A stretch of DNA of 53,576 nucleotides from Bacilli bacterium (GCA_045600465.1 JAZRXY010000028.1:1-53576), one strand, 5' to 3'; shown: positions 323 to 16,447, counted from the stretch's first letter. Notes: generated by a model not told the origin, from the letters alone. A program made the numbers and translations.

Positions 323-1792
323 ATGGAAAAAATACATTTTAATCTTTGTGATAAAGAGAGTGAAACATTAGAATTCAAAAGGGCTAAAGGAGGTCTTCCT
401 AACTCATTTTTTGAAACTTATAGCAGTTTTTTAAACACTAAAGGTGGATCGATTTATATAGGAGTAAATGAATTACCTGATAAAACTATCGTTCCATCTA
501 TGCTTGCGCTAGAAGATATAGACAAGATAAAAATTGAATTATTTAACAATTTGAATAATCCGCAAAAGGTCAGCGCCAATCTTTTAAATACTAATAATGT
601 TTTAGTAAAAGAATTTAATGGATACCCTGTTTTGGAAATCAAATTAGAACCTGCACCTGTGGAGTATAAGCCGGTATTTATAAATAATAATATCTTAACA
701 GGGACATATAGAAGAAATCACGAAGGGGATTATAGATGCACGCCTTCCGAAATTAAAGCAATGCTTCGTGATGCAGAAAGCAAGTCACAAGACCTATACT
801 GCTTAGAAGAATTGGGACTTGATGTCCTTTCTAAAGATACTATTGCTACATATAAAAACAGATTATTAGCCTTAAAACCAGAACATGTTTTTGCTCAAGG
901 AGATGAGAAAGATTTTTTAGAATATTTAGGTGCTATAAGGGTGGGTAAAGATGGCAACTATCATCCTACAAGAGCTGGGTTACTTATGTTTGGATATTCT
1001 TATAAAATAGTATATGAATTTCCAGAATATTTTGTTGACTATCAAGAACATTATTCAAATGACATAAACCAAAGATGGACAGATCGAATCACTTCGGATA
1101 ACGGAGATTGGAGTGGTAACTTATATGATTTTTACTGCAAGGTATCAAAAAAATTAACATCTGATTTGAAAACACCATTCATAATCAAAGACAATGTTAG
1201 AATCGATGAAACTGAGATGCATAAAGCTGTGAGAGAGGCTTTGTGTAACGCTGTTTCTAACTCTGATTTTTATCAACCACAAGGTTTAATTGTCCATAAG
1301 TATAAGGACAAAATGGAATTTATTAATCCAGGATGTTTGAGAATGTCTGTTGAAAAAATGTTTAAAGGCGGAGATTCAAATGCTAGAAACAAAACGATTC
1401 TTAAGATGTTTAATGTTGTTGGTATTGGAGAAAGAGCTGGAAGTGGATTCCCTCAAATAGTGAGGGCTTGTATTGAATTTGGCTATAATCAACCAGTTAT
1501 ACAAGATACATTTAAACCAGATAGAACGACACTTACTGTTTTTAGTGTTAAGAAAGCTGACACTAAATATGACACTAAACAGCCAGAATTAGACACTAAA
1601 TATAGTGCTAATGAAAATAAGATCATCACTTATCTTTCTAATGTAGATGAAGTAAAAGCTAAAGATATTGCTTATTCAGTTGGTCTAAGTTTGTCAACTG
1701 TAAAGAACACCTTATATAAATTAGTGGAAGAGGGGATTGTATCATCTACTGGCACAATAAAAGACAAAAGATACTTTATCGGCAAAAAGTGA
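323..1792 (+). CDS. AlbA_2 (Schlafen-like) + RecG-C/HATPase_c_4 + C-terminal wHTH protein
   Basis: N-terminal ESETLEFK..ETYSSFLNTKGGSIYIGV; central REALCNAV..NPG..NARN..GIGERAGSG; C-terminal HTH. RBS AAGGAG; extended -10 TGaTATAAT at 281-289. Confidence 0.85.
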   Translation: MEKIHFNLCDKESETLEFKRAKGGLPNSFFETYSSFLNTKGGSIYIGVNELPDKTIVPSMLALEDIDKIKIELFNNLNNPQKVSANLLNTNNVLVKEFNGYPVLEIKLEPAPVEYKPVFINNNILTGTYRRNHEGDYRCTPSEIKAMLRDAESKSQDLYCLEELGLDVLSKDTIATYKNRLLALKPEHVFAQGDEKDFLEYLGAIRVGKDGNYHPTRAGLLMFGYSYKIVYEFPEYFVDYQEHYSNDINQRWTDRITSDNGDWSGNLYDFYCKVSKKLTSDLKTPFIIKDNVRIDETEMHKAVREALCNAVSNSDFYQPQGLIVHKYKDKMEFINPGCLRMSVEKMFKGGDSNARNKTILKMFNVVGIGERAGSGFPQIVRACIEFGYNQPVIQDTFKPDRTTLTVFSVKKADTKYDTKQPELDTKYSANENKIITYLSNVDEVKAKDIAYSVGLSLSTVKNTLYKLVEEGIVSSTGTIKDKRYFIGKK

Positions 1793-1891
1793 TTTTTAAT
1801 TAACGATTGATAGATAAAAGTGTTTTGTAGATATGTTATTGACTGCACATACCATTTTGAGGGTATGGTCTGACGAAGGTCTTACTGCAGT

Positions 1892-2197
1892 CATGTAGAG
1901 ACAGTATGTCTTTTGTCCCAACGAGAAACAAAGGATAAATTAGAGGTTAAGGTAGATAATCCAAGCATAACTAAAGCAGAAGCTAAGCCTACATATGATG
2001 ATGTAAGAGATTATGTTATGGAAATGTATGGTGTAAAGGTATCATCACTTGATATAGCTAATGCTAAGAATTTATATGGCGTTAAGGAAAGAGGAAACTA
2101 TAACATCACAAAGAATAAAGATTATAAGAAGCCTAATCTAACTGAAGAAAAGAAAAAGATGCTAAAAGAAGCATTAAAGCACTTTAAAATGATTTAG
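1892..2197 (+). pseudogene. Orphan C-terminal tail of the type found on RlmD/RumA and rumA-targeting serine recombinases
   Basis: In-frame HVETVCLLSQ upstream of the 1913 ORF, then AKPTYDDVRDYV..GVKVSSL..NYN..ALKHFKMI; no methyltransferase or recombinase body upstream. Confidence 0.75.
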
Positions 2198-2224
2198 GTA
2201 TATGACTCCATCAATAACTGGTGG

Positions 2225-2428
2225 ACACATAATGCTACAATTCCTATGCTTGGAGATGCACAAACAATAGTTTACTGTTGTAATGAAGGCGATAGAATTG
2301 TAATTAAATCCTACAAAATGGAAGATCAGTTGGGTTCAGATAATTCTATACTAGATGTAATTGCGAGTGTTACTGATGGAGGAAAAGCGTCTGTAAAAAA
2401 GAGATTTAAGAAATATAATTATTCATGA
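2225..2428 (+). pseudogene. C-terminal remnant of an ABC/SMC-type ATPase (PHP-ATPase/TrlF/Ppl-like tail)
   Basis: In-frame THNATIPMLGDAQ (H-loop-like) ... DVIASVTDGGKASVKKRFKKYN; no Walker A, 5' end missing. Confidence 0.55.
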
Positions 2429-2456
2429 TAACATGTGTTTTAAGGAGGTGAATTTA

Positions 2457-3842
2457 ATGGCAAATAACTTTTTTGATTTAGTCAGAGATGGTTTTTTTAA
2501 TCCTTTTTCTGGGTCAAACAAAAGATACAATTACGATTTATTACAATTAATAAATGGCAAAATGTCATTAGATAATCTCCAAGTAGTTAAAGAAGATATT
2601 GTTGATTGGATTGTCGATTACGTAGATAATTGTCCAATTGATATGTATAGCGATGATACAAATGAGGAAGAAAAAGATGTTAAGTCATTTGCATACGACA
2701 AAGTAAGATATTTTGTAAAGTGCGGCTGGTTAATAGAAGATTTTGAGGGAATTAAAATCACATATCAATTAGATGAAAATGGTATTAAGATTTTATCAGC
2801 GATGGAAAAAGCGGTTAAAGATGATACAAAGTCTTTGGAGTTTTCTGGATATGTTTACAATATCTACAACAATCTATACAACTATAATTACGATCACGCT
2901 GTTGATATTATTGAACAAGTATATAATGCTTCAAAAGAATTGAATTCAATGCTTAGGGGCTTGAATGTTAACATTAAGAAATTCTTAACTAAACTTATTA
3001 GTGAAAATGAAGCAATGCCTAGAGAAATCTTGCAAACAATATTCTTTGATTATCAAAAGAAAGTTGTACTTAAAGCATTTAAAAACTTTAGAGAAAAAGA
3101 CAACCCATCAAAATATAAACTTTACATAGAGAATCGTATAGATGAGTTATTAACTGAAGAAAAGCTAAACTTGATGATTAGTAATTATATAAAGGTAAAA
3201 TATGATAATTCATCAACAATTGAAAACGAAGACGAAGCAAGAGAATTCTTTGTTACAAGACTAAATTATATCAGCGAACAGTTTGAAGAAATTGAAGAAT
3301 ATATTAGTATGCTTGATGGAAAGAATACTAAATATATTTCAACTGCTCAATCAAGATTAAACTTTTTACTTAACGAAGAAACAGATATTGAAGGAAGAAT
3401 TATTGATTGCTTAAAAGAAATAGGGAAAGTTGATGATGATTTTTTTGGAGGGTCTTATCTAGATATGTATGTTGGTTCAAATATTGATGAGTATTCTTTA
3501 TATAAACCCGTTTCAAGAAAAACAAAGGTAAAACCTGAACCAATTATCGATGAATTTGAAGATGACCAAGAAGAAATAAAAAGACTTGCTGAAAACTTAT
3601 TTAAAGATAATGAGTTTTCTGTATATAAGATTAATGAATTTGTATTATCTCAACTGGGAAGTAATAATCAAATTCATGCAAAGGATATAAAATTAAAAGA
3701 ATTTAATGATTTATTAAAAGTGTTTTTAGTTAAATTATATTCTGCAAATGCTAATGTTGAGTACAGTGTAAAATATCTTGATGATGTATATAAAACATTA
3801 GGATATAAAATGAAAGATTTTATTATAGAAAGGAAGGTGTAA
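2457..3842 (+). CDS. jetA: Wadjet JetA (DUF5716-like kleisin)
   Basis: First gene of a 4-gene operon with SMC and Toprim genes; FFNPFSG N-terminal motif; RBS AAGGAGG before ATG 2457. Confidence 0.8.
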   Translation: MANNFFDLVRDGFFNPFSGSNKRYNYDLLQLINGKMSLDNLQVVKEDIVDWIVDYVDNCPIDMYSDDTNEEEKDVKSFAYDKVRYFVKCGWLIEDFEGIKITYQLDENGIKILSAMEKAVKDDTKSLEFSGYVYNIYNNLYNYNYDHAVDIIEQVYNASKELNSMLRGLNVNIKKFLTKLISENEAMPREILQTIFFDYQKKVVLKAFKNFREKDNPSKYKLYIENRIDELLTEEKLNLMISNYIKVKYDNSSTIENEDEAREFFVTRLNYISEQFEEIEEYISMLDGKNTKYISTAQSRLNFLLNEETDIEGRIIDCLKEIGKVDDDFFGGSYLDMYVGSNIDEYSLYKPVSRKTKVKPEPIIDEFEDDQEEIKRLAENLFKDNEFSVYKINEFVLSQLGSNNQIHAKDIKLKEFNDLLKVFLVKLYSANANVEYSVKYLDDVYKTLGYKMKDFIIERKV

Positions 3843-3845
3843 CAT

Positions 3846-4490
3846 ATGGCAACTATACAAAGAAATTTAGCGTGTGAAGAATATGCTAAGGGTTATATTG
3901 AATTAACTGATACAAGAAAGAACACCTTCTCAAGATTGTGTAATAAACTTTTAAACGATAATTTTATTTATGCATATAGACAAGAAGATAGAAATGATTA
4001 CTATGAAATCTTAAGTATGAAGAAACTTATTGAAAATTATTTTTCTATGATGGATTTCGATTTAGTTCATGTAGATTCATATAAGTTGTTTTATATTCAA
4101 ACTAATGCTGATAGAAATAGAATTAGATTAAAGAAATTAGATACAGTCATTGTGTTAGTATTTAGACTTTTATATCACAAAGGAAGTTTAGATATTAATT
4201 CGAGTTCTGATATTTCAACAACTCTTGGTAAGATGATTACCGAAATAAATCAAACAGGTATATTTAAATCACAACCATCTATGACAGATTACATGGAATC
4301 ATTAAGACTATTGAAGCGATATAAATTAATTGATTATAACTTCAAAGATTTTAAAGAAGATAATGTTATTGTGATTTATCCTACTATTTTATATGTAGCA
4401 AAAGTAGATAGTATTAATATGCTCAATGATAAGTTAAAGACTTATATTGCAGTAAAAGGAGATGATGAAGATGAAGTTGAAGAAGATTAA
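3846..4490 (+). CDS. jetB: Wadjet JetB (DUF4194-like kite subunit)
   Basis: 214 aa with RIRLKKLDTVIVLVFRLLY and IYPTI motifs and an acidic tail; lies between jetA and the SMC gene. Confidence 0.82.
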   Translation: MATIQRNLACEEYAKGYIELTDTRKNTFSRLCNKLLNDNFIYAYRQEDRNDYYEILSMKKLIENYFSMMDFDLVHVDSYKLFYIQTNADRNRIRLKKLDTVIVLVFRLLYHKGSLDINSSSDISTTLGKMITEINQTGIFKSQPSMTDYMESLRLLKRYKLIDYNFKDFKEDNVIVIYPTILYVAKVDSINMLNDKLKTYIAVKGDDEDEVEED

Positions 4491-7400
4491 ACTTATTAAC
4501 TGGCACATCTTTACAAATACTACTATTGAAGTTGATGGGAATATTTTAATCACAGGAGAAAATGCAAGTGGTAAATCAACATTAATGGATGCTATTTATT
4601 ATGTACTTTCAGGCGGAGATCAATACCATTTTAATAAAGCGGCTAATGAAGGTGGTCAAAGAAATCTTGAAACATACATGAGAGGGAAACTTGGATCTGA
4701 GAAGAATCCATATTTAAGACCACAAACTGATGTAGTGAGTTATGTTATATTAGAATATGAAGATGAAAAAAGAAGACATAACATGGTACTTGGGTGTGAG
4801 ATGGAAATTATTGCATCTACTCAACCAAAAAATCATTTCTTTGTAATTAATAATTACAAGATTAAAGATGATGATTTTATCAAAGAAAAGCAAATAGTTG
4901 AATACAAGTCATTTAAATCTAATGCAAAAGCTATGAAATATGATTTTGATGAACTCCCAGATTCAAAGAAAGATAGACGCAGAAGACTTGCTAAGGATAT
5001 CTTTAAATTAGATGACCACAAGAGATATTATGATTTACTTCAAAATGCAATATGTTTTAAACCTATTAGTGAAGTGTCAACTTTTGTTAATGGTTTTCTT
5101 TTAGAAGAAGATAATATCGAATTGGGTAGTTTGAGAGAAGAAATTAGATCATATCAAAATATTCATAAGATGGTTATTAGGGAAAAAGAAAAAATTGAAT
5201 CTTTAAAAGAATTTACACCTAAAGCAGAAAAATATATTTCAAATTTGGATGAACTTAAATATTTTAATGCACTAAGAATAGATTCAAAAATTGAAAAACT
5301 AAATAACCTTATTAATCGTGCCAATATAGAATTAAAACGTTTAGAAGATGAATATAATGGCTTAAAACTTGAAGAGGAATCTCTAAATAAAAATCGTGAT
5401 AGATTAAGAATAGAGATTCACCAACTTGAAAATAATGAAGCTTATAAAGCTTTGTTGAATAAAAAACAAAACCTAGAACAATTAAAGAACGAATTAGGTA
5501 TATTAAATCAAAAATTAAATGAATTTTCTGGGACTTTAGCTTCAGAGCAAAAAATAGTTAGAGCATTAGGATTAAACTTTAGATTCGATGAAGATTATAA
5601 ACAAAAAGATTTTGGCTTATTAAAGGCACATTTTGAAAATTATAATGCACAATTAAAAGAATTAGATGATAAGACACGAGGCCTGATAGCTGAGACAAAA
5701 TATTTGGTTGAGCAAAATAATAAATCAAAGAATAAAAAGGGAAAAGAATTAGACAATTTAAATAAAGGTATTAACAATTATCCTAATGATGTATATAACT
5801 TAATCGAAATAGCAAAAACAGCGATAATGGAGCATAATCCAAAAGATAAAAATCCAGAAGTAAGACCATTATGTGAATATATTGAAATCAATGATGAAAA
5901 GTGGTCAAATGCATTGGAAGGTTATTTGAACACTAGAAGATTTAACTTAATTTTTGATCCAAAGTACTATGATGTTGTAAGTGAAGCATATGATAAATAT
6001 AAAAAAGAACGTAGCGTATATGTTGCGGGTATTGTTAATGTTGCAAATATTCCGAATAATAAAACATTGAAAAACTCTTTGATGACTAAAATAGATGTAA
6101 AAAATAGATTTGCTAAGAAATATGCAAATTATCTTTTAGGTGATTTGATTTGCGTGGATGATGTTAAGGATTTAAAACAGTTTGAATCATCAATAACTCC
6201 TGGAGTAATGGTTTATAAAAACTATGTTCAAAAGGCTACAGACCCAAAAATTTATAAAGTTCCATTCATAGGCCGTGATTCTAGGAAAAAACGAATTGAA
6301 ATTTTAAATAACGAAATTAAACAATTAGATAATAGTAATTTAGAATACAACAAGAAATTATCTGATTATGATAGAATTCTTTTAACTATGAAAAATAGTT
6401 CTATTGATGACTTAATGAAATCTGAAAACTATTGGATTCAAATATCAAACAAAGAAAATTCTATAGAAAGATTAGAAACAGAAATTAAATCTGATGAAAA
6501 GAATAATGGACTTCTAAAAATAACAGGTAGAATTGATGATGCTAAAAAGAATTTAAAAATTATTGAATCTGATATTATGAGAAATGGTTCAAAGCAAAAG
6601 GAAAATAGTACAAGCCAAGGACAATTAAATCAAAAATTATTGGACAATAAAGAGCAATTACAAAACGAGCAAGATAATTATAATGAGATGCGCAAATGCT
6701 TAGTTGATGAAGTATATGAAGCACGTAAAGAAAAATATACTTCAAATGGTTGGTTAAATGATGAACAAATAAACAAAGATTATGAAAGTGTTAGACAATA
6801 TAACAATGCAGTTAATTCATCACTTATTTCTGCAATGCAAAAGTATTCAACTACTTATAAAGCTTCATTAACACCAATTATTGAAAATATCTGTGACTAT
6901 GTTAACGAATATTACGACTTAATTAATCGTGGAGTTGTTCAATATGAAATGGAAGCAAAGGAAGCTTATGAAAGAGCAGAAATTTCATTTAGAGAAGACT
7001 TTATTGCTAAATTAAAGGAAAAAATCGAAAAATCACAAAGAATGTTGGATAAAATTAATAAGAATCTAGCACTACATCCTTTTGGTAACGATGAAGAAAA
7101 ATATAAGTTCTATTATGAGCCAACCAAAGATAGTGAATTCTACAATTACTATAGAATTATTATGTCCGGTAAATTAATGGGATCAAAAAATTTATTTACA
7201 GAGATTCTTGATGAAAAAGATTATTCTTTTATGAAGGATCTATTTGGGAAAATTTCTATGGAAACTGATTCGGCGCAAGCTGCAGCAGAAGTTGAAAGAT
7301 ATTTAGATTATCGTAATTATATGAATTATGATATTAAGATTACTAATAAGTATGGTGATGAATCATATTTCTCTAAGATCAATAGAGAAAAGAGTGGTGG

Positions 7401-7692
7401 AGAAACACAAACTCCATTCTATATTGTTATGGCTTCTTGTTTCGATGAATTGATGAATAAAGATTCTAATAAAGTTGAAAGTACTTGCCAAGTAGTCTTT
7501 GATGAAGCTTTCAATAACATGGACGAAAGCAGAATCAAATCATTAATGGAATTCTATAAGAAATTGAATATTCAAATTGTCATTATTGTTCCTTCAAATA
7601 GAATAAGTGCTATTTCGCCATATATGGATACATTAGTTGGTATAACAAAAGTAAATAATCATCCTTATTTAAACGTGGTGAGTAAGCAATGA
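4462..7692 (+). CDS. jetC: Wadjet JetC SMC-like ATPase
   Basis: LINWH, Walker A GENASGKST, FNKAA, long coiled coils, signature SGGE, Walker B VVFDEAF; start may be 4465 or 4471. Confidence 0.9.
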   Translation: MMKMKLKKIKLINWHIFTNTTIEVDGNILITGENASGKSTLMDAIYYVLSGGDQYHFNKAANEGGQRNLETYMRGKLGSEKNPYLRPQTDVVSYVILEYEDEKRRHNMVLGCEMEIIASTQPKNHFFVINNYKIKDDDFIKEKQIVEYKSFKSNAKAMKYDFDELPDSKKDRRRRLAKDIFKLDDHKRYYDLLQNAICFKPISEVSTFVNGFLLEEDNIELGSLREEIRSYQNIHKMVIREKEKIESLKEFTPKAEKYISNLDELKYFNALRIDSKIEKLNNLINRANIELKRLEDEYNGLKLEEESLNKNRDRLRIEIHQLENNEAYKALLNKKQNLEQLKNELGILNQKLNEFSGTLASEQKIVRALGLNFRFDEDYKQKDFGLLKAHFENYNAQLKELDDKTRGLIAETKYLVEQNNKSKNKKGKELDNLNKGINNYPNDVYNLIEIAKTAIMEHNPKDKNPEVRPLCEYIEINDEKWSNALEGYLNTRRFNLIFDPKYYDVVSEAYDKYKKERSVYVAGIVNVANIPNNKTLKNSLMTKIDVKNRFAKKYANYLLGDLICVDDVKDLKQFESSITPGVMVYKNYVQKATDPKIYKVPFIGRDSRKKRIEILNNEIKQLDNSNLEYNKKLSDYDRILLTMKNSSIDDLMKSENYWIQISNKENSIERLETEIKSDEKNNGLLKITGRIDDAKKNLKIIESDIMRNGSKQKENSTSQGQLNQKLLDNKEQLQNEQDNYNEMRKCLVDEVYEARKEKYTSNGWLNDEQINKDYESVRQYNNAVNSSLISAMQKYSTTYKASLTPIIENICDYVNEYYDLINRGVVQYEMEAKEAYERAEISFREDFIAKLKEKIEKSQRMLDKINKNLALHPFGNDEEKYKFYYEPTKDSEFYNYYRIIMSGKLMGSKNLFTEILDEKDYSFMKDLFGKISMETDSAQAAAEVERYLDYRNYMNYDIKITNKYGDESYFSKINREKSGGETQTPFYIVMASCFDELMNKDSNKVESTCQVVFDEAFNNMDESRIKSLMEFYKKLNIQIVIIVPSNRISAISPYMDTLVGITKVNNHPYLNVVSKQ

Positions 7693-8876
7693 CAAAGAAT
7701 TTTGAAAAAAATATTTTAAATAAATTATTAGATAAATATGAAAAATCAAAGCTATCTAAAGGTGGAACAGCAATTAATAGAAGTATAAAACTTACTACAA
7801 AGGATGATGTATTAAGCTCTTATACAAGTTTTGATTCTTATAAATATTCTGATGACAATGATGCTGTAATAAAGAAACTGGAATCTCAAGGTTTTATTAA
7901 AGCTGAATTTAATAACGACACATTTAAATCGCTCACATTGAATTTGGATAACGTTGATGATGTTTATGATTATTTAAACAGAAGCAAACCTTTAGATGAA
8001 CTTGCTAAGATTAGAATGGTATTATCTAAATACTATTTTGATAATTTTATGGGATTATTCTTAGACTATGTTGAGACTTATTTGAACGAAAAATATGACT
8101 ATCCTAAGATTTATTTTAATAATGCAGATCAACTTGATTTATTATTAAATATATTTGATAAATTATTAGGATTAACTGAAGAAATTAAGAAAAGAGATTT
8201 TTCTGTTAGGTATTTAGGTGATTCTAAAATATTTGAATCAGTACAGGGAAAAGTAGTTAAGATTTTAAAAGATTTTGATGGTAACGATTATGATTCTGAT
8301 GAGGATGTTTTAGCTTCATATAATATTGTCAAAAACTCGTCATATGCTATGGTTAAGAATAATCTGGTTTTGAAGATCAATAATTCGATTATTGATTTAA
8401 ATGATTTAGGATATGAATTATCTCTTTCAGATGAAATGATTAAGAATGTAATCTTATTAGATTCACAAGTTTCAAAAGTAATCACTGTAGAGAACTTGAC
8501 AACTTTTTATTCATTAAATGATAGTGATACGGTTATTATTTATCTTGCCGGATTTCATAATCACACAAAGCAAAGTTTATTATTAAAGATATATGAAAAA
8601 TATCCTAATGCAGAATATTTACATTTCAGCGATATTGATGCTGGAGGATTCTTGATTTTTAATAATTTAATAGAGAAAACAGGCATCCCATTCAAACCGT
8701 TTAGAATGAATGTTGAAGAATTGAAATCTAACTTAAGCAACTTAAAGCATCTAACTGACAACGATGTTAAAAGGCTTAATAAAATGATGAGTGATGCTAG
8801 GTTTAATATATTCCATGAAGTTATTTCTTATATGCTTGAAAATGATGTTAAGTTAGAACAAGAACTATTGGATTAA
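7689..8876 (+). CDS. jetD: Wadjet JetD Toprim nuclease (DUF3322 + DUF2220)
   Basis: GDSKIFE, VITVENLTTF, HFSDIDAGG (DxD), C-terminal LEQE; ATGA overlap with jetC. Confidence 0.88.
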   Translation: MTKNFEKNILNKLLDKYEKSKLSKGGTAINRSIKLTTKDDVLSSYTSFDSYKYSDDNDAVIKKLESQGFIKAEFNNDTFKSLTLNLDNVDDVYDYLNRSKPLDELAKIRMVLSKYYFDNFMGLFLDYVETYLNEKYDYPKIYFNNADQLDLLLNIFDKLLGLTEEIKKRDFSVRYLGDSKIFESVQGKVVKILKDFDGNDYDSDEDVLASYNIVKNSSYAMVKNNLVLKINNSIIDLNDLGYELSLSDEMIKNVILLDSQVSKVITVENLTTFYSLNDSDTVIIYLAGFHNHTKQSLLLKIYEKYPNAEYLHFSDIDAGGFLIFNNLIEKTGIPFKPFRMNVEELKSNLSNLKHLTDNDVKRLNKMMSDARFNIFHEVISYMLENDVKLEQELLD

Positions 8877-9324: not shown

Positions 9325-9942
9325 ATGTTGATGGATTACATAAATAAGAATTATGATAAAGCCGAACCAATATTCATGTATGAACTACCATGTACATCAC
9401 AGGATGCATTAAGGCAAGAAATGAAAAAACTTACTGATGAAGGTAAGCTTATACGTCTTTATAATGGCGTTTATTATAAACCATATAAGACTATATTTGG
9501 AACAGATGGCAAGATGTCTATTAACAAGTTCATCGAAAAGAGATACTTGTATGAAGCTGATGAAAGTATTGGCTTTGTATCTGGTATATCAATGTATAAC
9601 AAGTATGGTTTTACTACGCAAATACCATCAATTATTGAAGTAGTAACTAATACCGCTACAACAAAGCAAAGAAAAGTTGAAATTGATGGATATGGCATCA
9701 TTGTATATAAACCTGCAATTAATATAACAAAAGAAAATATCAACGAAATTGAATTCTTAACTATGATGACTGATATTGATAAGTATAGTGAACTAAGCCT
9801 AGATGAATTAAAATCCAAACTTAAACAATATGTCGAGAAGAAAAAAATAAAATTCAATTTAATTAAGGAATATTTACCTTTATTTCCAGATAAGGTCTAT
9901 AAGAACATTTATAATGGAGGGCTGATGAATGAGCTAGTATAA
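9325..9942 (+). CDS. Type IV TA antitoxin, AbiEi/DUF6088-like
   Basis: N-terminal wHTH (LRQEMKKL..GKLIRLYNGVYY), GFTTQIP motif; overlaps the start of the AbiEii-like gene. Confidence 0.8.
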   Translation: MLMDYINKNYDKAEPIFMYELPCTSQDALRQEMKKLTDEGKLIRLYNGVYYKPYKTIFGTDGKMSINKFIEKRYLYEADESIGFVSGISMYNKYGFTTQIPSIIEVVTNTATTKQRKVEIDGYGIIVYKPAINITKENINEIEFLTMMTDIDKYSELSLDELKSKLKQYVEKKKIKFNLIKEYLPLFPDKVYKNIYNGGLMNELV

Positions 9943-10290
9943 AAATTATAAGAGTGAGTGGAAAGAAATAATTGATACTGTTTCATTAGAATTAAAACGT
10001 AATCCTTTAATGGTTGAAAAAGATACAATCAATGTTTTTATATGAATTATCAAAAAGTGAGTTACCTTTTGTGTTTAAAGGTGGAACATCACTATCTAAG
10101 GCATACGATTTAATTGATAGGTTTTCTGAAGATATAGATTTATCTATGCCTAGAAGCATCACTGATAAGGAAAAGAAAAAATCAAAGGAAACAATTATAG
10201 CAATTGCGACTGAATTAGGATTAGTTTTAAAAAATCCTGATGATGTCTTATCTAGACATGATTACAATAAGTACTTATTTGAATCAATAA
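9929..10290 (+). pseudogene. AbiEii nucleotidyltransferase toxin, disrupted
   Basis: RBS GGAGG then ATG 9929 with TAG at codon 3; MVEKDT then a frameshift near 10025; FKGGTSLSKAY..RFSEDIDL motifs; truncated near 10290. Confidence 0.85.
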
Positions 10291-10314
10291 CTTCGCAGTC
10301 TTTTGTATTAATAC

Positions 10315-10443
10315 GGTTCTCTCAAATGAAAGTTGGTAGCTATTTTTAAAAAGCATCAAACAAAAGTTGGTGGCAATTGCTAAAACGATAAAATAAAAGT
10401 TGGATTCTTCACCACATAAGTGATGGCGTGTCCAACTTTTTGT
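10315..10443. repeat. AAAGTTGG-box mini-array, copy 1 (3 units + inverted unit)
   Basis: 10322-10443 matches 52110-52231 with 3 mismatches in 122 bp. Confidence 0.92.
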
Positions 10444-10628: not shown

Positions 10629-10734
10629 TCGATAAAATTCAAAGACTTGTAAAAATTTCGGTTGCAGTGTTGATTGGCGGCATTCTTTGTGATATAATAC
10701 AGTCGATAAAACTCAAAGACTTGCAAAAAAATCG
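10629..10734 (+). promoter_or_regulatory. sigma70 promoter bracketed by 32-bp direct repeats
   Basis: Repeats 10629-10660 and 10703-10734 (28/32); TTGATT(10670)-17-TATAAT(10693) between them. Confidence 0.85.
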
Positions 10735-10736
10735 AG

Positions 10737-12071
10737 GTGACATTGATGAGATTTGATCGAAATGTATATTTAAAACGATTAATAAATAAAAGGGATAATT
10801 CTTTAATTAAGGTAATTACTGGCGCTAGAAGAAGTGGAAAATCTTATTTAATGAATACTATATTTTATGAATATTTGTTAGAAGAAGGAATTAATAAAAA
10901 TAATATTATAAGATTTGCTTTTGATAATGATGAGCATATTGATTTACTCGATAATTATTATCCTAATGAAGATACAAAAATATATGCTAAAGCTGGCATT
11001 TATACTATTAATTCTAAAAAATTTAGAGCATATATAAAGGATGTTACTAATGATAAAGATAAATTTATATTGCTTTTAGATGAAATACAAATTTTAGATT
11101 CTTTTGTAGGTACTTTAAATGGATTAATGAACCACGAAAATTTTGATATATATGTTACAGGTAGTAATTCTCAATTGCTATCTAGCGAAATAGAAACAAA
11201 ATTTAGAGGAAGAAAATCGTCAATACACGTACTACCGTTATCATTTTCGGAATTGATGACTGGCTTTTCTATGACAACAAATGAAGCATGGAATAAATAT
11301 ATTGTTACAGGGGGTATTCCAATTGTATATAAACAAGCCGAAGATGAAAGAATGGAATATCTTAAAAATTTATGTGAAGAAACGTACTTGAAAGATATAA
11401 TTGGTAGAAAAGGTGTAAAGGATGTTGATACATTATCTGAACTATTTGGAGTACTAGCATCATGTGTTGGAACTGGGGTTAGTCCATCAAGTCTTGAAAA
11501 AACATTTAAATCTGAAAAAAAAGTAATTGTGACAGACGATACAATTAATAATTACATAAATCATTTTCAAGATTCATTCGTAGTATCTAAAGCATTAAAA
11601 TACAATATAAAGGGTAAAAAGTATATCAATTCACCATATAAAGTATATTTTGAAGATATTGGGGTAAGAAATGCAAGAACAGATTTTAGACAAATAGAAG
11701 AACCCCATTTAATGGAAAATATTATATACAATGAATTAAGATATCGAGGATATAATGTATGTGTTGGTGAGGTTGACATTAACGAAATGACAGATAGAAT
11801 CGATTGTAATGGCAAAAAAATATATAAGAAAAAAGCATTAGAGGTCGATTTTATTGCAACTAAGGGCAATCAAAAATATTACATACAGTCATGCTTAAAC
11901 TTAGATAATGAAACATCTTTAAGAGAAAAAAGAAGCCTTTATTATATAGATGATTCATTTAAAAAAATAATAATCACTAAGGATGGATTAGACATAAGAC
12001 GAGATGAAAATGGATTTACAATAATTGATATTTTTCAGTTCTTATTAGATATTAATTCATTAGATGCATAG
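10737..12071 (+). CDS. AAA_14 + DUF4143 ATPase
   Basis: ITGARRSGKS, LLLDEIQ, YVTGSNS, GGIP, YFEDIGVRN, MENIIYNEL, EVDFI; start GTG 10737 or ATG 10746. Confidence 0.9.
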   Translation: MTLMRFDRNVYLKRLINKRDNSLIKVITGARRSGKSYLMNTIFYEYLLEEGINKNNIIRFAFDNDEHIDLLDNYYPNEDTKIYAKAGIYTINSKKFRAYIKDVTNDKDKFILLLDEIQILDSFVGTLNGLMNHENFDIYVTGSNSQLLSSEIETKFRGRKSSIHVLPLSFSELMTGFSMTTNEAWNKYIVTGGIPIVYKQAEDERMEYLKNLCEETYLKDIIGRKGVKDVDTLSELFGVLASCVGTGVSPSSLEKTFKSEKKVIVTDDTINNYINHFQDSFVVSKALKYNIKGKKYINSPYKVYFEDIGVRNARTDFRQIEEPHLMENIIYNELRYRGYNVCVGEVDINEMTDRIDCNGKKIYKKKALEVDFIATKGNQKYYIQSCLNLDNETSLREKRSLYYIDDSFKKIIITKDGLDIRRDENGFTIIDIFQFLLDINSLDA

Positions 12072-12111
12072 TCTGATCATAAATTATGATTTAATGAAAT
12101 AATTAAATACA

Positions 12112-12366
12112 TATTGAATTTTGTTATAATCAACCAATTATACAAGATGCATTTAAATCAGATAGAACAACGTTTACTGTTTTTAGTGTTAAGAAGGATG
12201 ACACTAAACAACCAAAATTAGACACTAGAAGAGGGAATCGTATCATCTGTTGATACAATAAAAGACAAAAGATATTTTGTCAGTGAAAATAATTTTTAAT
12301 TTCTGATTGATATACGAAAGTTTATTGTAGATGTAATGTAGTATTGACTGCTCATACTGTTTTGAG
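12112..12366 (+). pseudogene. Degenerate, internally deleted copy of the 3' end and downstream flank of gene 323-1792
   Basis: Aligns to 1471-1861, lacking one 12-bp unit and the equivalent of 1599-1726. Confidence 0.85.
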
Positions 12367-12410
12367 TGTCTACAAAAAATAAACAAAATAGGAAAGAAAA
12401 GGAGCAAAAT

Positions 12411-13136
12411 ATGAAAGAAGAATGTTTAATATGCAAATCTCCTCTTGAATATCTAAATGAAGATATTGAAATGGAGTGTGCTATTTGTCACAAAAAAGAA
12501 TTAAGTAAAACAAGATGCATCAACGGCCATTATGTATGTAATGATTGTCACATAAAAGGCATTGATAGCATTTTTGGTGTTTGTCTTAATTCTTCTAGCA
12601 AAAATCCAATAAAGATACTTAATGAAATGATGCAGTTACCATTTTGTCATATGCATGGTCCTGAACATCATATTATGGTTGGTTCGGCTTTACTAACAGC
12701 ATATAAAAATGCAGGTGGTAATATTGATCTTACTAAAGCATTAGTAGAAATGAAAAATCGCGGAGGTAGCGTCCCTGGAGGTGCTTGTGGTTTTTGGGGA
12801 GCATGTGGGGCAGGAATTAGTTCAGGGATGTTTATTTCTATAATTTCTTCATCAACACCTCTTGAAGGAAAACCATTTGGTCTTTCTAATCTTATGACTT
12901 CAAAATCGCTTGAAGCTATAGGTTTAATTGGTGGCCCTCGTTGTTGCAAAAGGGATTCTTACCTCTCCATTCTTTCTGCCATTGATTTTGTTAAAGACCA
13001 TTTTGGTGTTCAAATGGAAAAATCAGAAATTGTGTGTGATTTTTCTTTTAAAAACAATCAGTGTATTGGTAGCAAATGCCCCTTTTCAAAAACTAATCAT
13101 TTAAAAAATGTAGAATTCTATAAAAATGATGACTAA
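12411..13136 (+). CDS. DUF5714-family Cys-rich protein with N-terminal zinc-ribbon
   Basis: CLIC..CAIC..C..GHYVCNDCH; MHGPEHH; PGGACGFWGACGA; GGPRCCKRD; RBS AAGGAG before ATG 12411. Confidence 0.8.
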   Translation: MKEECLICKSPLEYLNEDIEMECAICHKKELSKTRCINGHYVCNDCHIKGIDSIFGVCLNSSSKNPIKILNEMMQLPFCHMHGPEHHIMVGSALLTAYKNAGGNIDLTKALVEMKNRGGSVPGGACGFWGACGAGISSGMFISIISSSTPLEGKPFGLSNLMTSKSLEAIGLIGGPRCCKRDSYLSILSAIDFVKDHFGVQMEKSEIVCDFSFKNNQCIGSKCPFSKTNHLKNVEFYKNDD

Positions 13137-13167
13137 AAATGTTTTTTTCTACAATTTATTCTTTTCT
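13109..13167. repeat. ~60-bp junction repeat, copy A
   Basis: About 56/60 identical to 14867-14926; internal TGTAGAA/TTCTACA inverted ends. Confidence 0.88.
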
Positions 13168-13381
13168 CATTGTTATTCCACCTCTATTTAATTATAGTGG
13201 AATAATCATAAATCCGGCATTTATGACATTTTCAGTTTAGCATTTACAGACAAGATTGTTGTAAATGTACAATAATATACAATTTTAATAAATAAAATTT
13301 ATTGGAAACTACAACAAAATGATTAGATTAATTACAAACAAATAATAGATATTTATTTAGTAAGAATCAATTATAAACAAT

Positions 13382-13446
13382 AATCGTTCGAACGAAACGC
13401 GAACGAAATTAAAATCGTTCACAAATGCGTTCGTATATGATATAAT
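13382..13446 (+). promoter_or_regulatory. Promoter with clustered CGAACGA/TCGTTCG motifs
   Basis: Palindrome TCGTTCGAACGA 13384-13395; CGAACGAAA at 13389 and 13400; AATCGTTC at 13382 and 13413; TGaTATAAT at 13438-13446. Confidence 0.65.
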
Positions 13447-13467
13447 TTTAATGCGAGGTGAATAAAA

Positions 13468-14718
13468 ATGAAGGAATCAAGAAATGTAGAGTTTAAAGGA
13501 AACATTACAAATTCATTTCTTAAAACAGTCTCTGCTTATAGTAATTATGATGGAGGAACTATTGTTTTTGGAATAGATGATAATGGTAATATAACTGGTA
13601 TAGATGAATCGTTGGAGGATGTTTGCTTGGATTTAGAAAATAGAATAAACGATACCATTAAACCGAACCCAAATTATGAATTTAAAATTGACAAAAAAAA
13701 TAAGACAATATCTTTAATTGTATATCCTGGTAAAAATAAGCCATTTTTCTATAAGAATAAGGCATACAAGAGAAATGATACCTCTACTATAGAAGTAGAT
13801 TCAATAGAATTAAAAAGATTAGTTTTGGAGTCGTTAAATATTAATTTTGAAGATCAACCTTCTAGTAATCAAAATTTGTTTTTTCATGAATTAGAAAATA
13901 AACTAAAAGAGAAATTAAAAATATCTAAATTTGATACTGACACACTCAAAACGTTGAAACTAATATCGACTGATGGAAAATATAATATTGCTGCAGAATT
14001 ACTCTCTGATAATAATTCTTTTCCAGGTATTGATATTGTTAAATTTGGAGAAACTATTAATATTTTTAAAGAAAGAATAACAATATCAAATTGTTCTATT
14101 ATAAAAATGTATTACGATGCCTTAGAGAGTTTTGAAAGATATTATACATATGAAGAAATTGATGGAGCTTTAAGAATTAAAAAAGAAAACATACCTCAAG
14201 AAGCTTTTAGAGAAGCGATCTTAAACGCATTAGTTCATAGGGTGTGGGATGTAAATGCACATACAAAAGTTTCAATGTGGGATGATTGCATTGAAATATC
14301 TTCAGTTGGAGGATTGCCAAAAGGTATGAATGAAGAAATGTATCTAAACGGAAATATATCTATTGCAAGAAATCCTATAATAGCTAATGTATTTTATAGA
14401 CTTAATTTAATTGAACAATTCGGAACAGGCATAAGTAGAATAGAAGAATGTTATTCTGATAATGCGGAAAAACCTGTTTTCAAAATCACTGATAGTAGTA
14501 TTTATATAAAACTTCCCAAAATTAACACAAATATCTCGTTAACTCATGACGAGGATGTTATTTATAAAAATATAAGCAATAGAAAAAAATCAAGTTCAGA
14601 AATTTTAATAGACTCACCATTTGGAAAAACAAAGACTGTTTCAATTTTGAATCGATTAATTGAAAAGGGACTAGTGAAGACTACGGGTGAAGGTAAAGCC
14701 AAGAAATACTTTATGTAA
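13468..14718 (+). CDS. AlbA_2 + RecG-C/HATPase_c_4 + HTH protein
   Basis: ESRNVEFK, VSAYSNYDGGTIVFGI, REAILNALVHR, RNPIIA, IEQFGTGI, C-terminal HTH. Confidence 0.88.
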   Translation: MKESRNVEFKGNITNSFLKTVSAYSNYDGGTIVFGIDDNGNITGIDESLEDVCLDLENRINDTIKPNPNYEFKIDKKNKTISLIVYPGKNKPFFYKNKAYKRNDTSTIEVDSIELKRLVLESLNINFEDQPSSNQNLFFHELENKLKEKLKISKFDTDTLKTLKLISTDGKYNIAAELLSDNNSFPGIDIVKFGETINIFKERITISNCSIIKMYYDALESFERYYTYEEIDGALRIKKENIPQEAFREAILNALVHRVWDVNAHTKVSMWDDCIEISSVGGLPKGMNEEMYLNGNISIARNPIIANVFYRLNLIEQFGTGISRIEECYSDNAEKPVFKITDSSIYIKLPKINTNISLTHDEDVIYKNISNRKKSSSEILIDSPFGKTKTVSILNRLIEKGLVKTTGEGKAKKYFM

Positions 14719-14736
14719 GGTGGAGCACTTTAAAAG

Positions 14737-14798
14737 ATGTTGAAACGTATATCGAAACAGTTGTTTTGCTTGAGAAAAAAACTCAAGAAAATATTTAA
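14737..14798 (+). mobile_element. Third, degenerate rlmD-3'-like att motif (DVETYIETVVLLEK)
   Basis: gaaacagttgttttgct reads ETVVLL, immediately after the 14718 stop; followed by an imperfect hairpin and T-tract at 14814-14856. Confidence 0.5.
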
Positions 14799-14855
14799 AA
14801 TAGAGTAAATTTGAGGGTTGTGACTCTAGAAGTAGGAGGCATGATCCTTTTATTT

Positions 14856-14926
14856 TTGTAGAAAAGTGTAGAATTCTATAAAAATGACGATTAAAAATGT
14901 TGGTTTTCTACAATTTATTCTTTTCT
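14856..14926. repeat. ~60-bp junction repeat, copy B
   Basis: Direct repeat of 13109-13167; TTGTAGAAAA(14856)..TTTTCTACAA(14904-14913) 10-bp inverted ends. Confidence 0.88.
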
Positions 14927-15042
14927 TTTGATAAGTTTCTCTTGTTTAGGATAAAGTGTTAGAAAACAAGATAAGAGAAATGAAACTTTAGCGCAGCTTT
15001 GCACCAGTACTGCCACTATTTTTTCTAGGTTGTGCGATATCT

Positions 15043-16320
15043 TTAAAATAATTGAACTTTATTTAAAAGAAAATCTAACAAGCTGCAATGTAATATTCCA
15101 TTTTCATCATAGAAGTGATGCGGAATATCGTTTCTAATTATAACTTTTTTGTAAAAATCCTTTGCTAAGGTTAAAGAATAAAACTCTGAATTTGATTTTT
15201 CATCACTATTCATTTCATATGCACTCTGAATATAAATTCTTTTATCAAGGTCATTAACGATGAAATCAATTTCTTTTGTAATAGTATTTTTATCTTTTCT
15301 ATCATAAACTACACCAACATCAACCTGATATCCTCTTTGAATTAATTCATTATAAATGATGTTTTCCATAATATGACCTTTATCATATTGACGGTAATTC
15401 AATCTGACATTTCTTAAACCTATATCTTGGTAGTAATATTTATTAGGATAAGAAAAATAAGTTTTCCCTTTAATGTCATATCTTTTGGCTGTTGATATTA
15501 AAAAAGCATCTTCAAGCTTACTTATATATGAACTAACAAGATTAGAATCAACTTTTTCTTGCATAGCACTACCAATTGCATTAGCAATATTATTAGGATT
15601 TGTAAGAGAACTAATGGAAGAAGCCAGAATATCAAGAATATTATCTAGGATATCCTCTCTTTGAATTTTTCCATGCTCCTTTAAATCTTTAATATATGTT
15701 TCTTTAAATAAGTTAGATAAGTATTTAATTTTATCTGCATCAGTTTTTTTGTTTATGACCTCTGGCATACCACCAAAAAGCATATATCTATCTAGAACGT
15801 CCTTCTCATATCCGCCATAGTAAGAATAGACCTCAGAAAATGATAGGGGATATATATGAATTTGAGTAGACCTGCCTCTAAACTCGGTTGCTATATCAGA
15901 AGATAACATCTTCGAATTGCTACCGGTAACATAAACATCAAGGTTTTTATATCCTTTTAGTTCGTTAAGCATGTCGTAAATAGTAACTTTATTTTCGCCA
16001 TATTCATTTTTTATTATTCCCGTTTTAGACATTTGAACTTCGTCAATGAAAAGGTAGTATTTTTTACTGACATCAGTGTTTACAATAGCTTCAACATAAT
16101 CGCATAAAGCAATAGGGTTTCTAAAATTAAAGTATTTTCTCTTATCAAGCTCGATTTTAATTATGTTTTCATTAGGTACTTGGTTAGATTTAAGATATTC
16201 ATAAAATAGATCAAAAAGTAGCGTAGATTTTCCAGATCTTCTTAAACCAGTGATAACCTTGATGTTGCCATCCCACATTGCATTTATTAATTCATTAATA
16301 TATTTATCTCTTTTAACCAT
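15043..16320 (-). CDS. AAA_14 + DUF4143 ATPase
   Basis: ITGLRRSGKS, LFIDEVQ, YVTGSNS, FGGMP, YQDIGLRN, MENIIYNEL, EIDFI. Confidence 0.9.
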   Translation of the reverse strand: MVKRDKYINELINAMWDGNIKVITGLRRSGKSTLLFDLFYEYLKSNQVPNENIIKIELDKRKYFNFRNPIALCDYVEAIVNTDVSKKYYLFIDEVQMSKTGIIKNEYGENKVTIYDMLNELKGYKNLDVYVTGSNSKMLSSDIATEFRGRSTQIHIYPLSFSEVYSYYGGYEKDVLDRYMLFGGMPEVINKKTDADKIKYLSNLFKETYIKDLKEHGKIQREDILDNILDILASSISSLTNPNNIANAIGSAMQEKVDSNLVSSYISKLEDAFLISTAKRYDIKGKTYFSYPNKYYYQDIGLRNVRLNYRQYDKGHIMENIIYNELIQRGYQVDVGVVYDRKDKNTITKEIDFIVNDLDKRIYIQSAYEMNSDEKSNSEFYSLTLAKDFYKKVIIRNDIPHHFYDENGILHCSLLDFLLNKVQLF

Positions 16321-16333
16321 ATCAACACCTCAC

Positions 16334-16447
16334 TTCTATAAGTTGTAACAAAAGTGATAACACTTCTAGATGTAATTATATATTTGAATACAAAGAAAGT
16401 CAATTTTCATTTCCATAAGTAGCAACAAAAGTGATAACAGTTCTAGA
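16334..16447 (-). promoter_or_regulatory. sigma70 promoter bracketed by 37-bp direct repeats
   Basis: Repeats 16334-16370 and 16411-16447 (33/37); minus-strand TTGACT(16403-16398)-17-TATAAT(16380-16375) between them. Confidence 0.85.

Follow-up and report, generated by a model that had tools for sequence, protein, structure and literature searches.

The window analysed here, a stretch of 53,576 nt from a Bacilli bacterium (GCA_045600465.1, JAZRXY010000028.1:1-53576), contains two genes, hereafter gene 1 and gene 2, that encode ATPases with AAA_14 and DUF4143 domains, and the promoter of each is bracketed by two copies of a long direct repeat (Table 1). In both genes the distal copy (O1) lies upstream of the -35 hexamer and the proximal copy (O2) between the -10 hexamer and the ribosome-binding site. 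The 32-bp repeats of gene 1, which the initial annotation had placed at 10629 and 10703, 74 bp apart and with 28 of 32 positions identical, were re-found exactly. For gene 2 the proposed spacing of 77 also stood, but the repeat is 41 bp long with 36 identical positions, and not 37 bp with 33. Both promoters are consensus matches to sigma70-type hexamers and have the 17-nt spacer that had been claimed for them: TTGATT (10670-10675) and TATAAT (10693-10698, in the context TG-n-TATAAT) for gene 1, TTGACT (16403-16398) and TATAAT (16380-16375) for gene 2. The start of gene 1 needs correction, because the GTG at 10737 from which the gene had been counted falls within the ribosome-binding site (GAGGTG, 10734-10739), which itself adjoins the proximal copy; the ATG at 10746 is the likely start. 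The repeat sequences of the two genes are unrelated to each other, and neither could be found elsewhere in the 927-kb assembly of the host, even with up to 30% mismatches allowed.

Both proteins match the Pfam models AAA_14 (E 1.4e-26 for gene 1 and 7.3e-29 for gene 2) and DUF4143 (E 1.6e-14 and 2.7e-18) above the cut-offs, and both are recognized by the PADLOC model PDLC04787 of the candidate system PDC-S01 (COG1373; E 1.8e-102 and 1e-105, respectively); they are 37% identical to each other. The Walker A (G..GK[ST]) and Walker B (DE) motifs are invariant in 19 aligned paralogs of the host genome and in 79 proteins of the subfamily. A predicted model of the gene 2 protein (predicted local distance difference test (pLDDT) 93.7, predicted template modelling score (pTM) 0.92) divides it into an NTPase domain, a lid, a winged helix and a C-terminal domain resembling PD-(D/E)xK nucleases. 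The nearest folds retrieved by Foldseek are the archaeal ATPases 2fna and 2qen, followed by Cdc6/Orc1 and by STAND NTPases (Apaf-1/CED-4/NLR); the Cdc6/Orc1 chains were 1fnn (E 8e-7), 2v1u and 2qby, with low template modelling scores to Orc1/Cdc6 (0.28). No member of the PDC-S01 family was among the solved structures searched. In the nuclease-like domain, E319 on a helix and D352 on a strand (gene 2 numbering) are invariant.

Upstream repeats of this kind are not a chance feature of the genome. The host assembly (927 kb in 35 contigs, 31% G+C, 88% complete, with the window as contig 28) contains 21 DUF4143 matches, corresponding to about 20 genes or roughly one per 46 kb; many family candidates per genome are seen in relatives of the same order too. 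For each gene we scored the best ungapped direct repeat with a spacing of 20-110 within 160 bp upstream, using as controls the 291 non-DUF4143 genes with an upstream intergenic region of 100 bp or more. Scores of 13 and above were reached by 9 of 18 DUF4143 genes compared with 3 of the 291 others, and a score of at least 17 by 6 of 18 compared with 1 of 291 (Mann-Whitney p = 1.5e-6).

The host paralogs, 19 of which were aligned, fall into subfamilies with different repeat layouts. The subfamily of the window genes, PDLC04787, has seven members in the genome, and in four of them, gene 1 and gene 2 included, the promoter is flanked by two long copies at a spacing of 74-78 bp. The other two such members are on contig 6, with 27 of 27 positions identical at a spacing of 76, and on contig 18, with 38 of 41 identical at a spacing of 78 (lenient score). 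Members of a second subfamily (PDLC04790) are preceded by tandem 23-bp repeats, and outside the host a period of 23, 46, 69 or 22 is present in 69 of 71 metagenome loci with enough upstream DNA. A third subfamily (PDLC04792) has repeats every 32-34 bp, and a phasing of 32-34 bp (or 65) recurs in 20 of 28 same-phylum loci, one masked locus having been dropped. No upstream repeats were seen when three further host paralogs were inspected for them. Two side observations concern these other subfamilies. In 10 of the 71 metagenome loci with 23-bp units (set L102-L181; L140 is an example), the period is 46 with two alternating unit types, which hints at two specificities read in turn. Also, the host genome contains five copies of the 14-mer ACTTGAGCATTACA and none in the control orientation, and all five are about 100-155 nt upstream of a DUF4143 paralog from one of these two subfamilies; on contigs 6 and 18 the 14-mer is part of a longer common stretch, and it might mark the boundary of a cassette or be an upstream element that these genes have in common.

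To follow the bracket layout beyond the host, relatives were sought with an alignment of the seven window-subfamily members, the alignment of all 19 paralogs being too diverse. A genome collection yielded 80 relatives with 41-61% identity, from Firmicutes, Spirochaetes, Bacteroidota, Fibrobacter, Fusobacterium, Mollicutes-like bacteria and a methanogen, and 76 of them had enough upstream DNA. By a strict score 34 of the 76 loci carry a repeat pair, with a spacing of 63-87 in 32 of the 34. When the seven host paralogs were added to give a set of 83 loci, the match of a proximal zone to its own distal zone exceeded the 99th percentile of cross-locus scores in 31 loci (0.8 expected), and the own distal zone was the best match in its row for 35 of the 83. 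With a lenient score, the order unit, promoter, unit, ribosome-binding site was found in 45 of these 83 loci, and it was replicated in 21 of 44 non-redundant loci from IMG/VR and in 31 of 55 non-redundant loci of a held-out same-order set. In 27 of the 45 repeat-bearing genome loci, the segment that separates the copies contains a promoter match of at least 9/12. Two Bacteroidota-type loci, labelled Bacteroidaceae (L089) and Bacteroides (L095), have a spacing of 63 and a TAnnTTTG-like box between the copies, which we take to be a promoter element. O1 and O2 of one locus are far more like each other than like the units of homologs, and the sequences are specific to the locus, so that the initial description of a conserved architecture with paralog-specific sequence extends well beyond the window. 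Loci that lack a detectable pair still show a dyad peak at the proximal position (21% versus 4% in shuffles), with little at the distal one. On the viral side, 165 relatives of the window subfamily lie on IMG/VR contigs classed as viral, and two IMG/VR entries (L257 and L266) are two copies on one record.

Direct repeats of 32-41 bp that lie 74-77 bp apart could recombine by slippage, and it was proposed at the outset that the promoter might be an excisable switch. The repeats would then permit deletion of the promoter as an irreversible off-switch or, alternatively, be the scar left by insertion of a promoter segment; inversion of the promoter is excluded because the repeats are direct. We regard a recombinational role or origin as highly improbable. 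The fixed register recurs in three sets of loci and in several phyla with different sequences, for which one-off scars provide no explanation, and the 4-5 differences between the copies show that the duplication is not recent. It is the promoter alone that the repeats enclose, and not the gene, no recombinase or other gene is common to the flanks, and no recombinase domain was found among the window open reading frames (ORFs) scanned. Moreover, each unit is itself a dyad with an internal scaffold, as an operator would be.

This scaffold became apparent when 66 proximal units were aligned in one register between TATAAT and GGAGG. In most relatives, TATAAT on the gene strand is followed after 1-2 nt by an arm of 7-8 nt, 4-5 A residues, a core of 12-14 nt, five A and a T, the inverted arm and GGAGG. 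The core is a palindrome, often of the form TGC...GCA, and the whole unit is dyad-symmetric and about 32-42 bp long. O1 ends a few bases upstream of -35, and O2 spans the interval from just after -10 to the ribosome-binding site. Gene 1 conforms to the full arm, A-tract, core, A-tract and inverted-arm arrangement, its O2 having the arms TCGAT/ATCGA, AAAA and an A-run, and the core CAAAGACTTG, while gene 2 and its orthologs represent a variant without A-tracts that keeps the same geometry. Mirrored positions are Watson-Crick complementary in 51% of cases at the true axis compared with 19-31% at 11 shifted axes, and all four pair types are present at several arm and core positions, indicating compensatory changes. 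To the left and to the right of the core the A-tract occupies the same strand, which makes the unit directional.

Dyad symmetry with compensatory changes would also be expected of an RNA element, in which O2, as a hairpin of the 5′ untranslated region, would govern translation or the stability of the mRNA and O1 would be an insulating hairpin against read-through; in agreement with such a role, the end of O2 falls precisely at the ribosome-binding site in the majority of loci. Several properties of the units nevertheless make an RNA element improbable. O1, being upstream of -35, is no part of the transcript of its gene, but what it retains is the same sequence and not just a similar shape, and O2 begins 1-3 nt after the -10 hexamer, so that a transcription start about 7 nt downstream would remove most of its left arm. 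Mismatches at mirrored positions comprise 70 G-T and 56 A-C pairs, without the excess of G-T wobble that pairing in RNA would favour, and the A-tracts cannot pair with each other because both are on the same strand. Rfam gave no matches at E <= 1 in the window between 9000 and 17500. Finally, the distance between O1 and O2 is clustered in a manner for which an RNA element offers no rationale.

The spacings in the 45 repeat-bearing genome loci fall at 72-78 (n = 30), 83-87 (n = 8), 63 (n = 3) and other values (n = 4). In the pooled 97 loci the peaks are at 63-65, 73-78 and 85-87, and in the 31 held-out loci the clusters are at 60-65 (n = 7), 72-79 (n = 12) and 84-88 (n = 12). For an 11-bp period the held-out spacings give a Rayleigh p of 5.6e-6, a value that is too optimistic because kin share spacings and the clusters partly follow clades. 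A difference of one helical turn can also be seen between orthologs, the spacing being 77 at gene 2 and about 86 (read by eye) in its 64%-identical ortholog L296. The earlier remark that the copies are about seven helical turns apart fits these clusters.

Which protein might read the units was approached through the neighbouring genes and through co-variation. Within flanks of up to 2.5 kb on each side, no gene family is common to more than 5 of the 76 loci; the ATPase gene alone thus accompanies the unit. Across 42 loci, operators tend to be alike where the proteins are (Mantel r = 0.28, p <= 0.0005), so that the co-variation of repeats with protein phylogeny, which had been suggested as a check, is positive. 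Closer relatives keep recognizable sites: two loci whose proteins are 61% identical to that of gene 1 (L022 and L023) retain its core and left arm, and gene 2 orthologs with 62-66% identity have related O1/O2 pairs, the repeat score being passed by 5 of 8 non-redundant ones. Common descent alone would likewise yield related units among relatives at 61-66% identity.

An exploratory mutual-information scan was then used to pick pairs of residues and bases. High-scoring columns are weakly enriched in the winged helix (5 of 78, compared with 2 of 155 in the AAA+ domain, 3 of 50 in the lid and 2 of 122 in the nuclease-like domain). Two positions stand out, residue 341 in a hairpin of the C-terminal domain and residue 260 at the start of the presumed recognition helix. 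Arg or Lys at residue 341 goes with a core of the form C..G in 16 of 20 discovery loci, compared with 1 of 36 loci having other residues, and in 13 of 16 compared with 0 of 39 held-out loci; pairing of Arg/Lys with guanine is a chemically plausible basis for this co-variation. Asn at residue 260 goes with an arm of the form G..C in 10 of 15 compared with 0 of 41 discovery loci. As a control for kinship, independent pairs were taken on a FastTree phylogeny of all 111 rows, and in these pairs the base never shifted in the opposite way at either residue.

A different binder, for instance a nucleoid protein of the host or some regulator encoded at another site, could occupy the units instead, or they could be cleavage or loading sites of the ATPase-nuclease. 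A-tracts and AT-rich dyads attract nucleoid proteins, the protein has a nuclease-like domain, and residue 341, the strongest covarying position, sits in that very domain. A general host factor, on the other hand, would not account for sequences that are distinct at each locus and even among the paralogs of a single cell. No second gene accompanies the site, and the placement around -35/-10 and at the ribosome-binding site favours control of expression, with which a second role would be compatible. We consider such alternatives unlikely.

Taken together, the sequence analyses and the predicted structure lead us to favour, as reasonably probable, a reading in which the repeat pair constitutes private operators that are read by the gene's own product and give rise to looping or occluding autorepression. 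Recognition by the own product is inferred because no neighbouring gene is conserved, a winged helix is present in the model and residue-base co-variation is seen at a borderline level. The own product, with its AAA+, winged-helix and PD-(D/E)xK-like parts, would bind both units as symmetric dimers or larger oligomers. With about 6, 7 or 8 helical turns between them, the bound units would share one face of the DNA and would be bridged, and the promoter between them looped, wrapped or occluded, so that the gene would be repressed rather than activated by its own product. Release of the protein might be brought about by its nucleotide state or by a cellular or phage cue. Divergence of specificities between paralogs would allow about 20 copies to coexist in a small genome without cross-regulation, since each paralog is proposed to have a specificity of its own. 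A broader proposal, which we put forward as doubtful though worth stating, is that the family is a very large natural set of ATP-dependent binders (possibly nucleases) of private sites of about 40 bp, with a modular read-out in which the arms are recognized by the winged helix and the core palindrome by the nuclease-like domain, and that the promoter site is a 'home' keeping the protein inactive until a cue arrives.

A number of observations weigh against autorepression by the own product through a pair of like sites. Three of the seven window-subfamily paralogs in the host genome are without a repeat pair, and no pair could be detected in 38 of 83, 23 of 44 and 24 of 55 loci of the three sets. 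Two loci (L025 and L032) carry two units of the same scaffold with clearly different arms and cores, contrary to a strict model of one protein and two identical sites, because such a model predicts units that are alike; these loci look like hybrid regulatory regions or like loci read by two different proteins. The identity of O1 and O2 could also be maintained by gene conversion instead of selection. Besides the kinship effect on the held-out spacings, the spacings outside the main cluster in the first 66 loci show no significant period (Rayleigh p ~0.15). Plain co-inheritance would likewise produce the Mantel correlation. For residue 341, the held-out Fisher test depends heavily on a single clade of 11 gene 2 orthologs, without which the counts are 2 of 5 compared with 0 of 39 (p = 0.011), and that for residue 260 reaches p = 0.048. 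Among independent pairs, about five of nine changed in the same direction at residue 341 with none opposite and four unchanged (median sign-test p = 0.06), and about six of 11 did so at residue 260 with none opposite and five unchanged (median p = 0.03, range 0.008-0.125); when confined to the held-out rows, the kinship-controlled test is underpowered (p = 0.5). Finally, the third nuclease motif of the window subfamily is I-Q-S-A, with an invariant Q365, where other subfamilies have I-E-x-K; K375 and E379 are conserved nearby, and the C-terminal domain of this subfamily may read DNA without acting as a nuclease.

Self-repression through operators that bracket a promoter is already known, and the present case is best classed as an instance of it that is unusual in the type of regulator, the length of the sites and their diversification from locus to locus. 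Promoter-bracketing operator pairs with DNA looping are familiar from GalR (OE/OI), LacI, AraC and DeoR. As in those systems, two like dyad sites flank the core promoter and the spacing changes in steps of a helical turn. The window units are, however, longer (32-42 bp) and built from two concentric palindromes plus A-tracts, a loop would have to form over the very short distance of about 75 bp, and specificity varies per locus; the presumed regulator is an AAA+/winged-helix/nuclease protein that regulates only itself, and not a small repressor. The C proteins of restriction-modification systems are small, separate helix-turn-helix proteins with adjacent operators (C-boxes). They share with the window genes the arrangement of a mobile nuclease-type gene presumably held in check by palindromic, system-specific operators at its own promoter, but regulation is presumed here to be exerted by the ATPase-nuclease itself, with operators on both sides of the promoter.

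Two further comparisons concern DNA-binding initiators. Plasmid iterons are tandem direct repeats of about 17-23 bp at a replication origin, bound by Rep initiators, and they too are gene-specific repeats beside the gene of the presumed binder; the sister subfamily likewise has tandem 23-bp repeats. The window genes, in contrast, have no tandem array but a single pair of long dyad units, spaced by 74-77 bp, on either side of a promoter, with no replicon context and with an AAA+/STAND-like fold in place of Rep. In Orc1/Cdc6 the same order of AAA+ domain, lid and winged helix is found as in the predicted model, and origin recognition boxes are long, dyad-containing sites flanking an AT-rich segment. 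The window proteins differ in adding a C-terminal nuclease-like domain, their sites are direct instead of inverted and bracket a promoter, and nothing indicates an origin function for them.

Table 1. Coordinates of the window features, predicted domains of the gene 2 protein and positions of the 14-mer in the host genome.
Feature	Position	Strand	Length	Remarks
Gene 1 O1	10629-10660	+	32 nt	Distal copy, upstream of -35
Gene 1 promoter	10670-10698	+		Consensus match 10/12, TG before -10 hexamer
Gene 1 O2	10703-10734	+	32 nt	Proximal copy, between -10 and ribosome-binding site
Gene 1	Ribosome-binding site from 10734; coding 10746-12071 (likely start)	+		AAA_14 + DUF4143 ATPase, PDC-S01
Gene 2 O1	16407-16447	-	41 nt	Distal copy, upstream of -35
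Gene 2 promoter	16375-16403	-		Match 11/12, best promoter-like site in 10300-16800
Gene 2 O2	16330-16370	-	41 nt	Proximal copy, between -10 and ribosome-binding site
Gene 2	Coding 15043-16320; ATG 16320-16318; ribosome-binding site GAGGTG 16331-16326	-		AAA_14 + DUF4143 ATPase, PDC-S01
AAA+/STAND-like NTPase	Residues 1-170			Gene 2 model
Lid	Residues 171-220			Gene 2 model
Winged helix	Residues 221-298			Gene 2 model
PD-(D/E)xK-like domain	Residues 299-425			Gene 2 model
JetA	2433-3839			
DUF4194/JetB	3846-4487			
JetC-like	4462-7689			
JetD	7689-8876			
AbiEii-like ORF	10014-10349		111 aa	Positions 2-88 of 238-position Pfam model; probably a fragment
ACTTGAGCATTACA copies	Contigs 6 (6936), 17 (3795), 18 (1416), 24 (9848, 9871)			

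The two ATPase genes lie in a defence island that occupies the first 16.4 kb of the window. Its order is an AlbA_2/HATPase_c_4 gene, JetA-D, an AbiEi-like gene, a truncated AbiEii, gene 1, a DUF5714 gene, a second AlbA_2 gene and gene 2; the complete Wadjet set and the two AlbA_2/HATPase_c_4 (AlbA_2/Schlafen) genes are contained within 323-8876 and 13468-14718. The ORF at 9325-9942, upstream of the AbiEii-like one, has a DUF6088 match below the cut-off. Downstream of the AbiEii-like ORF, direct repeats of two families (D2 and D3, TCAAA..AAAGTTGG-like) are spaced by 33-34 nt within 10322-10440; one copy overlaps the 3′ end of that ORF, and a 21-nt inverted repeat follows.

Both window products match PDLC04787 and the two Pfam domains, and the PDC-S01 family is defined by protein models only. 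One survey ranks PDC-S01 as the fourth most common defence system or candidate in prokaryotes, with about 39,000 copies, and describes validation as pending for most such candidates (PMC12988326); in another it is the most frequent single locus in rumen genomes (PMC13356809). In a report of heterologous tests, one PDC-S01 representative, assayed in E. coli B against T7, T5 and T4, does not appear among the four protecting candidates (bioRxiv 10.1101/2024.09.26.614923). The literature found on PDC-S01 consists solely of surveys and this one test, and the papers found on DUF4143 do not deal with its function or regulation. In the printed text that was searched, the PADLOC embedding preprint included, we found no description of operators, DNA sites or autoregulation for the PDC-S01/AAA_14-DUF4143 family.

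One further suggestion was that the repeats be compared with phage and plasmid sequences. The operator-promoter stretches had no match in the phage collection and a single 38-nt match, at chance level, in the plasmid collection; sites that mimic phage or plasmid DNA are unsupported by these searches.

The operators may be linked to defence. If each gene indeed has a private operator, this would provide the first concrete handle on PDC-S01 function, identifying its members as sequence-specific DNA binders with long, fast-evolving sites. Failure of heterologous defence tests might then be explained by tight self-repression of genes that are cloned together with their native promoters. The family is also a possible source of orthogonal regulator-operator pairs. 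Should the read-out of private sites prove true, there would be thousands of mutually orthogonal protein-operator pairs with a readable recognition code, and the presence of about 20 paralogs in a 1-Mb genome, free of cross-talk, would be accounted for.

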